Below are positions 27,603 through 36,880 of a stretch of DNA of 64,000 nt, in pieces. The DNA is from Escherichia coli. GTDB taxonomy: Bacteria; Pseudomonadota; Gammaproteobacteria; Enterobacterales; Enterobacteriaceae. The stretch lies in NCBI RefSeq assembly GCF_013122565.1, contig NZ_CP053258.1. One strand, written 5' to 3'. Position 1 is the stretch's first letter. Every line of letters begins with the position of its first letter. The notes under the pieces are model-generated. The model was not told the DNA's origin. It did no database searches and was given only the letters and a program-made list of their open reading frames with translations. The translations under genes and the position numbers were made by a program.

Positions 27603-29291
27603 ATGAGTGGTGAAAAAAAGGCGAAAGGCTGGCGGTTCTATGGTCTTGTAGGTTTAGGCGCAATAGCACTGCTTTCCGCTGGCGTCTGGGCGTTGCAATA
27701 TGCTGGCAGTGGGCCAGAAAAAACGTTGTCGCCGCTGGTGGTGCACAACAATCTGCAAATCGATCTCAATGAGCCGGACCTCTTTCTCGACAGCGACTCT
27801 CTGAGCCAGCTTCCCAAAGATCTCCTTACCATTCCGTTTCTCCACGATGTTCTGAGCGAAGATTTCGTTTTCTATTATCAGAATCATGTCGATCGTCTGG
27901 GCATTGAAGGCAGCATTCGCCGCATTGTCTATGAACACGATCTCACGCTGAAAGATAAGCTCTTTTCGTCACTCTTAGATCAGCCCGCGCAGGCGGCGCT
28001 ATGGCACGATAAACAAGGCCATCTTTCACATTACATGGTGCTGATCCAGCGCAGTGGTTTAAGCAAACTGCTGGAGCCATTGTTGTTTGCCGCTACCAGC
28101 GATAGCCAGTTAAGCAAAACGGAAATCAGTAGCATCAAGATAAATAGTGAAACTATTCCTGTTTATCAGTTGCGCTATAACGGCAATAACGCCCTGATGT
28201 TCGCGACATATCAGGACAAGATGCTGGTGTTTTCCAGCACGGATATGCTGTTTAAAGATGAACAGCAGGATACCGAAGCTACGGCGATCGCAAGTGATTT
28301 GTTGAGCGGTAAAAAACGCTGGCAAGCCAACTTTGGCCTGGAAGAGCGTGCTGCCGAAAAAACGCCAGTACGCCAGCGCATCGTGGCCAGCGCCAGGTTG
28401 CTGGGTTTTGGCTACCAGCGATTAATGCCTTCTTTTGCCGGTGTGCGCTTCGAAATGAGCAACGACGGTTGGCATAGCTTTCTGGCGTTAAATGATGAAT
28501 CCGCTAGTGTGGATGCCAGTTTCGATTTTACGCCGGTATGGAGCAGTATGCCTGCCGGGGCCAGCTTCTGCGTGGCTGTGCCTTATTCACACGGTATTGC
28601 TGAAGAGATGCTCTCACAAATCGGTCAGGAAAAAGATAAGTTGAATGGGGCATTAGATGGCGCAGCCGGGTTGTGTTGGTATGAGGATTCAAAACTGCAA
28701 ACCCCGCTATTTGTTGGCCAGTTTGATGGCACTGCCGAACAGGCGCAATTGCCTGGGAAGCTGTTTACCCAAAATATTGGCGCTCGTGAAAGCAAAGCGC
28801 CAGAAGGTGTTTTGCCGGTAAGCCAGACTCAGCAGGGCGAAGCGCAAATCTGGCGTCGCGAAGTGAGTTCCCGATACGGTCAGTATCCGAAAGCGCAGGC
28901 GGCGCAACCCGATCAATTAATGTCGGATTATTTTTTCCGCGTGTCGCTGGCGATGCAAAACAAAACGCTGCTTTTCTCCCTCGATGACACGCTGGTTAAT
29001 AACGCCCTGCAAACACTGAATAAAACCCGCCCGGCAATGGTGGATGTAATACCCACTGATGGCATCGTTCCGCTCTATATCAATCCACAAGGCGTGGCGA
29101 AACTGCTGCGTAACGAAACGTTGACCAGTCTGCCGAAGAATCTCGAACCGGTTTTTTATAACGCCGCACAAACTTTATTAATGCCGAAGCTGGACGCTTT
29201 ATCTCAACAATCGCGTTATGTCATGAAGCTGGCCCAGATGGAACCCGGTGCCGCCTGGCAGTGGCTACCCATAACCTGGCAGCCGCTATGA
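27603..29291 (+). CDS. yfaA: DUF2138-family protein, first gene of the alpha-2-macroglobulin cluster
   Basis: 562 aa from first ATG (SD AAGGA 8 nt upstream; ORF track starts at TTG 27555); N-terminal hydrophobic segment. Confidence 0.8.
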
Positions 29292-29911
29292 GGCACGGGC
29301 TGCTGGCGCTGATTTGCTGGCTGTGTTGTGTTGTTGCCCATAGCGAAATGCTGAATGTCGAACAATCCGGGCTTTTTCGCGCCTGGTTTGTGCGCATTGC
29401 TCAGGAACAGCTCCGCCAGGGGCCAAGTCCACGCTGGTATCAGCAGGATTGTGCGGGCCTGGTGCGATTTGCAGCGAACGAGGCGCTGAAAGTTCACGAC
29501 AGTAAATGGCTAAAAAGTAACGGGTTATCTAACCAGTATTTGCCGCCAGAGATGACGCTAACACCTGAACAGCAGCAACTGGCGCAAAACTGGAATCAGG
29601 GGAACGGGAAAACCGGCCCCTACGTGACCGCGATTAATTTGATTCAGTACAACAGCCAGTTTATTGGCCAGGACATAAACCAGGCGCTGCCTGGCGATAT
29701 GATTTTTTTCGATCAGGGCGATGCCCAGCACTTAATGGTCTGGATGGGGCGTTACGTCATCTACCACACCGGAAGCGCCACGAAAACTGACAACGGAATG
29801 CGCGCAGTCAGTCTGCAACAACTTATGACATGGAAGGACACCCGATGGATACCCAACGATTCCAATCCCAATTTCATTGGCATTTATCGTTTAAATTTTC
29901 TGGCGCGATAG
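29288..29911 (+). CDS. yfaT: DUF1175-family exported protein
   Basis: 207 aa; ATG overlaps yfaA stop (ATGA); signal-peptide-like N-terminus. Confidence 0.75.
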
Positions 29912-36099: not shown

Positions 36100-36103
36100 T
36101 GCT

Positions 36104-36880
36104 ATGCGAAAGATTTTTCTTCCGTTGTTACTGGTGGCGCTTTCGCCTGTCGCTCACAGTGAAGGTGTGCAGGAAGTCGAGATTGATGCACCGCTCTCTG
36201 GCTGGCATCCGGCAGAGGGCGAAGATGCCAGTTTTTCACAATCGATCAATTACCCGGCGTCGTCCGTCAACATGGCAGATGATCAAAATATCTCAGCGCA
36301 GATCCGCGGCAAAATAAAAAATTATGCTGCGGCGGGTAAGGTTCAGCAGGGCCGGCTGGTGATCAACGGTGCCAGTATGCCGCAGAGAATTGAATCCGAT
36401 GGTTCATTTGCACGCCCTTATATTTTCACTGAAGGCAGCAACAGCGTGCAGGTCATCAGCCCGGATGGGCAAAGCCGACAAAAAATGCAGTTTTACTCAA
36501 CGCCGGGTACAGGAACGATTCGTGCACGTTTACGGCTGGTTCTCTCGTGGGATACGGACAATACCGATCTCGATCTCCATGTTGTCACGCCCGATGGCGA
36601 ACACGCCTGGTACGGTAACACCGTGCTGAAAAACAGTGGTGCACTGGATATGGATGTCACGACGGGGTACGGACCCGAGATTTTCGCCATGCCAGCACCA
36701 GTTCACGGGCGCTATCAGGTGTATATCAACTACTATGGTGGGCGCAGCGAAACGGAATTAACCACCGCCCAACTGACGCTGATCACCGATGAAGGATCGG
36801 TCAATGAGAAACAGGAAACATTTATTGTACCGATGCGTAATGCTGGCGAGCTGACGCTGGTGAAAAGTTTTGACTGGTGA
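36104..36880 (+). CDS. yfaP: DUF2135-family exported protein
   Basis: 258 aa; ATG 4 nt after yfaQ stop; signal peptide. Confidence 0.8.
   Translation: MRKIFLPLLLVALSPVAHSEGVQEVEIDAPLSGWHPAEGEDASFSQSINYPASSVNMADDQNISAQIRGKIKNYAAAGKVQQGRLVINGASMPQRIESDGSFARPYIFTEGSNSVQVISPDGQSRQKMQFYSTPGTGTIRARLRLVLSWDTDNTDLDLHVVTPDGEHAWYGNTVLKNSGALDMDVTTGYGPEIFAMPAPVHGRYQVYINYYGGRSETELTTAQLTLITDEGSVNEKQETFIVPMRNAGELTLVKSFDW

Follow-up and report, generated by a model that had tools for sequence, protein, structure and literature searches.

The window analysed here, a 64,000-nt stretch of Escherichia coli DNA (contig NZ_CP053258.1), carries five closely packed genes, yfaA-yfaT-yfaS-yfaQ-yfaP, at 27603-36880. 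This cluster is the enterobacterial five-gene, magA-less form of the type II bacterial alpha-2-macroglobulin (Mag) operon. The genes are listed below with their lengths in amino acids (aa) and their orthologues; each ends in a single terminal stop.

27603-29291, plus strand: yfaA, ATG start, 562 aa, MagB orthologue
29288-29911, plus strand: yfaT, 207 aa, MagC orthologue
29845-34449, plus strand: yfaS, 1534 aa, MagD orthologue, a type II bacterial alpha-2-macroglobulin
34450-36099, plus strand: yfaQ, GTG start, 549 aa, MagE orthologue
36104-36880, plus strand: yfaP, 258 aa, MagF orthologue

The yfaA and yfaT genes overlap in an ATGA, yfaT and yfaS overlap by 67 nt, the TAA of yfaS is directly followed by the GTG of yfaQ, and a 4-nt gap separates yfaQ from yfaP. 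A first-pass annotation made from the sequence alone had described this packing, and its boundaries and junctions were reproduced to the base. Open reading frames of such length with such database matches are not a product of chance. The same annotation had predicted five Pfam families (DUF2138, DUF1175, A2M, DUF2300 and DUF2135), all of which were found by domain search. YfaA matched DUF2138 (E 6e-284), YfaT matched DUF1175 (E 7e-59) and weakly NLPC_P60 (E 0.003), YfaQ matched DUF2300 twice as well as SpoIID, and YfaP matched DUF2135 (E 6e-17). YfaS matched MG2 (E 3e-19), A2M_BRD (E 3e-17), A2M (E 4e-12) and bMG10 (E 6e-6), confirming that it belongs to the A2M family. In NCBIfam the YfaA equivalog was the sole accepted match, the remaining matches lying far under their curated cutoffs, and none of the five proteins matched a PADLOC defence model. 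Sequence searches of the PDB returned nothing significant for YfaA, YfaQ or YfaP; for YfaS they gave weak matches to C5 and CD109 and no solved bacterial A2M at E 0.01 or better.

The assignment to the Mag operon follows from gene order, from YfaT and from the one gene that E. coli lacks. YfaT matched PDB entry 7BK8, 'MagC', at E 4e-104, with roughly 75-80% identity by eye over 186 aligned residues. Using a YfaT profile, we scanned a single genome for each species and examined 80 loci, the collection holding at least 509 matching stretches. These 80 came from other species of Escherichia, Superficieibacter, Enterobacillus, Yersinia and, for about 70 of them, Pseudomonas. All loci of sufficient length kept the order yfaA-T-S-Q-P on one strand, indicating that the five genes are co-conserved across genomes. 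Identity to the E. coli proteins was 43-57% for YfaA, YfaS, YfaQ and YfaP and 69-78% for YfaT. Recent horizontal transfer was considered for the high YfaT-MagC identity and rejected, given the 43-57% identity of the neighbouring genes and the slow evolution of DUF1175 across many genera. In 70 Pseudomonas loci an extra YfaP paralogue, MagA, lies directly upstream of the yfaA homologue and is about 39% identical to YfaP, whilst YfaP itself is 50-57% identical to the last gene of the Pseudomonas mag operons. No YfaP-like open reading frame precedes yfaA in any of the enterobacterial loci, and in the window gyrA lies directly upstream. Taken together, the family order, the MagC match and the extra Pseudomonas paralogue map YfaA to MagB, YfaT to MagC, YfaS to MagD, YfaQ to MagE and YfaP to MagF, leaving MagA with no E. 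coli counterpart. The locus is not new. It is an annotated core operon of E. coli that was already known, and its orthologue has been studied biochemically since 2013; the type II operon was reportedly first described by Budd et al. in 2004, as later papers have it.

The yfa cluster is real and under selection. The ratio of nonsynonymous to synonymous divergence (dN/dS) was 0.02-0.19 for all five genes in comparisons with E. coli W, E. whittamii, E. albertii and Superficieibacter, in each of which the genes are also intact. Two comparisons distorted by coordinate extension (yfaA against E. albertii and gyrA against Superficieibacter) were left out. Synonymous divergence (dS) of yfaT was markedly below that of its neighbours, for example 0.22 against 0.37-0.44 in the comparison with E. 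whittamii.

The yfaS gene of K-12 was described in the first pass as a pseudogene, and this was confirmed. In MG1655 it is annotated as pseudogene b4500, and its sole defect is a nonsense codon at a position where the window encodes tryptophan.

33946-33948, plus strand: TGG codon for Trp1368 of yfaS, a stop codon at the same place in K-12

A K-12-type genome carries the corresponding PGAP flag, 'internal stop', on yfaS. The first pass had gone on to treat the intact form as a property of this strain. All five reading frames are indeed whole, but the cluster was matched in 5425 of 5426 complete E. coli genomes and in 5177 at 80% query coverage or more, indicating that the intact state is the norm in E. 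coli. K-12 is thus a natural yfaS mutant. Since it makes no full-length YfaS, most E. coli genetics is uninformative here, and E. coli work on the system needs strains such as W or wild isolates like the present one.

Export signals were judged by hydropathy, charge and cleavage motifs, a heuristic, together with helices in AlphaFold2 models. By these measures every product begins with a signal-peptide-like or transmembrane segment, as the first pass had noted, and all five are probably exported. YfaA has one N-terminal transmembrane helix (a signal anchor at about residues 12-34), beyond which lie periplasmic alpha/beta domains resembling Mog1, PsbP and the PknH sensor. The other four have predicted Sec-type signal peptides, ending VAHS-E in YfaT, PTLA-EE in YfaQ and VAHS-EG in YfaP (hyphens mark predicted cleavage). 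From the 29845 start, the predicted signal peptide of YfaS has a long n-region and an h-region, followed by GLANA-DD. A relaxed lipobox-like 'IAAC' at YfaS residues 22-25 is not conserved, being interrupted by Tyr in orthologue L002. Further into YfaP, residues 137-217 (36512-36754) matched phrog_1735, a family of unassigned function, at E 7e-9. This was the only match of a Yfa protein to PHROGs, and it indicates that a DUF2135-type module also occurs in phage proteins.

The predicted export of YfaS depends on where its reading frame begins. For the intact yfaS of E. coli W, RefSeq/PGAP places the start 24 nt past the yfaT stop, giving a protein of 1504 aa, a choice that would delete the signal peptide. 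In the window, the ATG at 29845 has an AAGGA Shine-Dalgarno sequence 6 nt upstream, whereas the ATG at 29935 has none. The curated MG1655 pseudogene shows an identical 67-nt overlap with yfaT, and no start upstream of the hydrophobic core is possible in Superficieibacter electus other than the two ATGs inside yfaT. The 29845 ATG is therefore the better supported start of yfaS on sequence grounds, and the late start is probably a systematic mis-start across E. coli annotations. We rejected conservation of the ATGs at -82 and -67 as separate support for this start, as they are made by Trp codons of YfaT: the candidate ATGs are conserved everywhere because the tryptophans of the YfaT motif TWKDTRWIP create them. 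At 29830-29911 some 22 codons are read in two frames, and the Trp codons of this motif yield both yfaS ATGs as well as the Shine-Dalgarno sequence. In most of the Pseudomonas loci examined the macroglobulin ATG overlaps the yfaT stop in an ATGA, giving a short canonical signal peptide, which agrees with the published signal peptide of PAO1 MagD, 26 residues long (PMC3735191).

We next consider the two sites of YfaS on which macroglobulin chemistry turns, the thioester and the bait.

33040-33063, plus strand: thioester-equivalent site, YfaS residues 1066-1073, PWGGVINT, aligned with PYGCLEQT of ECAM, with Cys, Glu and Gln all replaced
32356-32448, plus strand: bait-region equivalent, YfaS residues 838-868, just past the Pfam A2M_BRD match and containing NRSER

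The first pass had found no CxEQ thioester motif in YfaS, and both a pattern search and an alignment with K-12 YfhM (ECAM) agree. No C.EQ occurs anywhere in the 1534 aa, and the protein has only two cysteines, one of them within the signal peptide. The BLASTP alignment of PWGGVINT with PYGCLEQT indicates that the thioester is missing at the homologous site, rather than merely unmatched by a pattern search. The wider family is less uniform. A complete CxEQ (GCVEQ, within PYGCVEQT) was present in 15 of 79 orthologues. GGVEQ was found in 52, the enteric forms GGVIN or GGVVN in eight, CGVEQ (PYCGVEQT, with the Cys shifted by one residue) in two, and other variants (GSVEQ, GGVEH) in the remaining two. 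The Cys-bearing orthologues include L009, L019, L022, L024, L025, L028, L043, L044, L052, L056, L070 and L074. With 15 of 79 Mag-type macroglobulins retaining CxEQ, the rule that type II proteins have no thioester is not universal, and its absence does not strictly define the clade. Judged from these alignments, the motif appears to have been lost stepwise within the clade, from GCVEQ to GGVEQ and then to GGVIN.

Few stretches of YfaS are as well conserved as the bait, which scores 0.90-0.97 per 20-residue block; much of the TED-like region scores 0.5-0.7. Because Pseudomonas sequences dominate the alignment, these absolute values are inflated, but the difference between regions of the protein and the agreement between genera still hold. 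A bait core, NRSE/DRxVKxLERPRRE, is common to Escherichia and Pseudomonas. By comparison, the baits of animal A2M proteins are variable. In MagD the bait ANRSERG lies at 847-853 and was replaced with a tobacco etch virus (TEV) protease site in a published variant (PMC5764988).

Two of the partner proteins bear peptidoglycan-enzyme-like features. In YfaT, C55 (QQDCAGL), H148 (QHLM) and H160 (YHTG) occupy the positions of the NlpC/P60 triad and were invariant in 12 diverse sequences. The AlphaFold2 model of YfaQ, built with 37 orthologues (predicted local distance difference test score 81.8), gave fold matches to class D beta-lactamases, to MecR1/BlaR1 sensor domains and to SpoIID. On the basis of this model we propose three modules. 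After the signal peptide, residues of about 22-245 would form a domain like those of penicillin-binding proteins (PBPs) and class D beta-lactamases; residues of about 256-445 would form a beta-rich region plus a SpoIID-like domain containing E334; and the C-terminal 100 or so residues (about 446-549) would form a module with HEYLH at 520-524, E536 and E540.

In the model, helix 59-72 opens with S60-x-x-K63, and strand 192-200 carries K195-T196 (K195-T-W). These are the helix-start and strand positions at which PBPs carry SxxK and KTG, although the third PBP motif of YfaQ reads KT[FWY] and not KTG. E334 lies opposite the conserved Glu in the 'ASEM/AGEM' motif of SpoIID, the catalytic Glu of that protein; the NCBIfam score of YfaQ for the SpoIID type was 18.2 bits against a curated cutoff of 83.3. 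HEYLH falls in predicted helix 512-526, with E536 and E540 on the following helix. Residues 456-548 run in the order helix, three strands, HExxH helix and acidic helix, and minimal zincins have the same order. The zincin fold of 446-549 was not confirmed, both fold searches being dominated by the larger domains, and profile and fragment sequence searches with the C-terminal HExxH module matched no peptidase family. Conservation was assessed in 64 aligned sequences; 63 full-length proteins, each representing a cluster at 50% identity, shared 27-49% identity with E. coli YfaQ. K195 was kept in all 64, E334, H520 and E521 in 63, S60, K63 and H524 in 62, E536 in 59 and E540 in 56. Six cysteines are invariant or nearly so across the family, which fits a periplasmic protein.

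The Pfam DUF2300 model matched YfaQ at 84-205 (34699-35064) and 412-532 (35683-36045), at E of about 1e-43 to 1e-46. We did not accept these as a true duplication, since BLASTP found no similarity between the two regions and their predicted folds differ. The way in which the family model was constructed may have produced the 'tandem DUF2300' as an artefact.

Published work on P. aeruginosa supplies a framework for these proteins. MagD is a periplasmic, inner-membrane-associated protein that co-purifies with MagA, MagB and MagF, all three of which are destabilised in its absence; MagB has a single transmembrane helix (PMC3735191). MagA, MagB and MagF each bind MagD 1:1, MagB is needed for membrane localisation of MagD and for its processing from 165 to 100 kDa, and loss of MagE alters both the amount and the processing of MagD (PMC5764988). 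Trypsin, chymotrypsin and papain cleave MagD in the bait, and MagD with a TEV bait is cleaved by TEV protease and holds it non-covalently (PMC5764988). MagC is a solved NlpC/P60-like protein described as peptidoglycan-binding in work cited by PMC10318531. The mag operon is controlled by RsmA and GacA and co-regulated with the T6SS (type VI secretion system), and deletion of magD sensitises P. aeruginosa to the peptidoglycan-targeting T6SS effectors VgrG3 and Tae1 (PMC12663445). Protection against such effectors was the only in vivo phenotype found in our literature search.

From this framework a mechanism can be proposed for the E. coli proteins. By orthology with MagB, YfaA would use its one N-terminal inner-membrane helix to tether and stabilise YfaS, a periplasmic protein of multiple macroglobulin (MG) domains, and YfaP, like MagF, would bind YfaS as a further subunit. 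YfaT, as the counterpart of MagC, would contribute an NlpC/P60-like module linking the complex to peptidoglycan. YfaQ probably makes a second such connection. Its fold and conserved motifs suggest a three-module, peptidoglycan-enzyme-like protein needed for correct YfaS processing. The link to peptidoglycan is suggested by the PBP-like and SpoIID-like folds of YfaQ with their invariant SxxK and Glu, and by the invariant Cys-His-His of YfaT. If YfaS behaves as MagD does, cutting of its bait loop would cause it to close on the incoming hydrolase, and the hold would be non-covalent because there is no thioester. The Pseudomonas phenotype suggests a guarding role for the complex in the periplasm and at the cell wall, directed at enzymes that are injected or invade, both proteases and peptidoglycan-degrading T6SS effectors. 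Its physiological targets could be host or bacterial proteases, or such effectors.

This proposal revises the first-pass view of a periplasmic or outer-membrane protease-trapping system with mechanistically undescribed accessory proteins. The periplasmic location stands, but MagD and MagB place the complex at the inner rather than the outer membrane (PMC3735191). Protease trapping is the published working model for MagD (PMC5764988), yet the physiological target may not be a protease (PMC12663445). The description of the partners as mechanistically undescribed is outdated, given the MagB anchor, the 1:1 binding of MagA and MagF to MagD and the MagC structure (PMC3735191, PMC5764988, PMC10318531). 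It is still partly true, and holds best for YfaQ/MagE and YfaP.

We consider it likely that the explanation holds as a whole, that is, that the cluster is a Mag operon orthologue encoding an inner-membrane-tethered periplasmic guard complex. Several points weigh against it. Our literature search found no experiment on the E. coli Yfa proteins. A promoter scan found fewer promoter-like sites than in shuffled sequences and none that was convincing upstream of yfaA, with no strong sigma-70 match. Strong conservation of the bait is not what is expected of a broad-spectrum bait. Trapping by MagD has been seen solely with the engineered TEV site and was incomplete (PMC5764988), and the DUF1175 family of YfaT is listed as catalytically inactive yet peptidoglycan-binding (PMC10318531). 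Finally, MagE of P. aeruginosa has a signal peptide yet was reported in the cytoplasm, and not as a stable part of the complex (PMC3735191), which conflicts with a periplasmic role for YfaQ.

The main rival reading gives YfaQ the part of the enemy protease. YfaQ would be the operon's own sensor-protease, its PBP/BlaR1-like and SpoIID-like modules reading wall damage or muropeptides and its HExxH module cutting the YfaS bait, so that YfaS is switched on from within. The putative active-site residues fit such a role, with S60xxK63, K195-T196, E334, H520-E-x-x-H524 and E536/E540 each retained in 56 or more, and for the most part 62 or more, of the 64 sequences, as do the fold matches to class D beta-lactamases, MecR1/BlaR1 sensors and SpoIID and the zincin-like order of 456-548. 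An internal trigger would explain why the bait core is conserved from Escherichia to Pseudomonas, why a 100-kDa form of MagD is made constitutively from the 165-kDa one, why magE deletion changes the processing and amount of MagD (PMC5764988), why YfaQ has three enzyme-like modules and why the thioester is dispensable; the sole in vivo phenotype, moreover, concerns peptidoglycan-targeting effectors. Much of this is offset by the unconfirmed zincin fold, the empty fragment searches, the altered third PBP motif and the reported cytoplasmic location of MagE outside the stable complex. In addition, exogenous trypsin, chymotrypsin and papain cut the bait too, and the 100-kDa form is tied most clearly to MagB, not MagE (PMC5764988). 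We regard self-activation by YfaQ as decidedly unlikely. If it were true, YfaQ/MagE would not be a chaperone, and type II macroglobulins would be endogenously triggered wall guards rather than passive protease traps. The thioester, kept in about one fifth of the sampled orthologues, nearly all of them from Pseudomonas, would then have become dispensable once an operon protease took over activation.

The guard complex could alternatively serve as a colonisation factor that neutralises host proteases, such as neutrophil elastase, in the periplasm of damaged cells, its peptidoglycan functions being incidental. YfaS has the A2M family architecture, MagD changes conformation with human neutrophil elastase (PMC3735191), and P. 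aeruginosa deficient in MagD is, in work cited by PMC5764988, described as less virulent in a chronic infection model. This role sits poorly with the wide occurrence of the operon in Pseudomonas of soil and plants and in further environmental species, with the T6SS co-regulation and the protection against bacterial peptidoglycan-targeting effectors (PMC12663445), with the peptidoglycan-enzyme folds of YfaT and YfaQ, two of the four partners, and with a bait that is conserved and not diversified. We consider it unlikely. Decay of the locus in E. coli, leaving the genes as functionless evolutionary baggage, is very improbable. The K-12 nonsense codon in yfaS, the lack of a strong sigma-70 match upstream of yfaA and the roughly 250 of 5426 genomes with no match at 80% query coverage or more would fit a cryptic locus. 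Against this stand dN/dS values of 0.02-0.19 in all five genes, intact genes in the window and in the four comparison genomes, invariant catalytic-type motifs and a K-12 defect that consists of one point mutation. The three enzyme-like modules of YfaQ, the conserved bait and the stepwise thioester loss are additions that bear on the role of type II macroglobulins, and these leads tie in with the 2025 result on protection against peptidoglycan-degrading T6SS effectors (PMC12663445).

The sequences flanking the cluster were also inspected. Upstream lies gyrA (24827-27454), followed by two hairpins, and downstream lies rcsC (37152-40001). The atoSCDAEB genes, which occupy the yfaP-rcsC interval in K-12, are missing from the window; in their place is a 271-nt spacer (36881-37151), as in E. 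coli W and O157. This spacer contains a perfect 12-bp inverted repeat, ATCTGCCGACGC…GCGTCGGCAGAT, forming a hairpin at 36935-36978. An Rfam scan of 27300-37300 gave no match, and terminator-like sites within the genes occurred at chance level. The gyrA-yfa block (24827-36880) stands unusually far from every one of the 5426 complete E. coli genomes, with best matches of 99.0% for gyrA and 97.7% for the yfa cluster. For the adjoining rcsC the best match is 99.4%, and more than 3000 genomes match at 99% or above. The distance suggests a divergent allele block or an unsampled lineage, which may be Shigella, a group outside the genome collection.

The leader of yfaA contains one further element.

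27587-27599, plus strand: yfaA leader element CACAAGGAATGTG, spanning the Shine-Dalgarno sequence and able to fold into a 4-bp hairpin whose loop holds GGA; candidate CsrA site

The sequence CACAAGGAAUGUG over the Shine-Dalgarno is the same in four Escherichia species while the remaining leader diverges, and CAGGGAUGG is present in the yfaA leaders of Superficieibacter and Enterobacillus. The GGA hairpin appears in the minimum free energy fold, yet the stability of that fold is not above that of shuffled sequences (z = -0.16). The element resembles a CsrA/RsmA site and is put forward as a candidate, a lead only. In P. aeruginosa, RsmA acts directly on the magA leader.

YfaQ differs in several ways from the systems that its predicted folds recall. 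With BlaR1/MecR1 there is analogy only, not membership: the domain order of YfaQ is reversed, it has no membrane-spanning segments, a SpoIID-like domain lies between its modules and its zincin fold is unconfirmed, the likeness being one of fold and motif. It likewise resembles the SpoIID/LytB lytic transglycosylases by fold and by its Glu, but its SpoIID-like domain is embedded in a larger protein.

Like the type I proteins ECAM/YfhM and Salmonella Sa-A2M, YfaS belongs to the A2M superfamily and combines several MG domains with a bait-region domain and a TED-like region. Of the short segments that BLASTP aligned with K-12 YfhM, only the best is significant (22% identity over 282 residues). ECAM has a CLEQ motif, a lipoprotein anchor and pbpC as neighbour (PMC3735191); YfaS has neither the motif nor that neighbour, and probably no lipoprotein anchor. 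Its neighbours are yfaT and yfaQ, whilst K-12 yfhM adjoins pbpC elsewhere in the genome.

The closest system is the P. aeruginosa Mag operon (PA4492-PA4487). That operon has six genes including magA, and E. coli has five without the MagA paralogue, placed between gyrA and rcsC or ato. The Pseudomonas thioester site is mostly GGVEQ, whereas E. coli has the further decayed GGVIN, and the macroglobulin start is mostly an ATGA overlap in Pseudomonas but lies 67 nt inside yfaT in E. coli. In Pseudomonas, regulation runs through RsmA and GacA. In other respects the two systems agree: the gene families and their order (MagB-C-D-E-F as YfaA-T-S-Q-P), the transmembrane anchor on the DUF2138 protein with predicted signal peptides on the others, and the bait core NRSER are the same in both.

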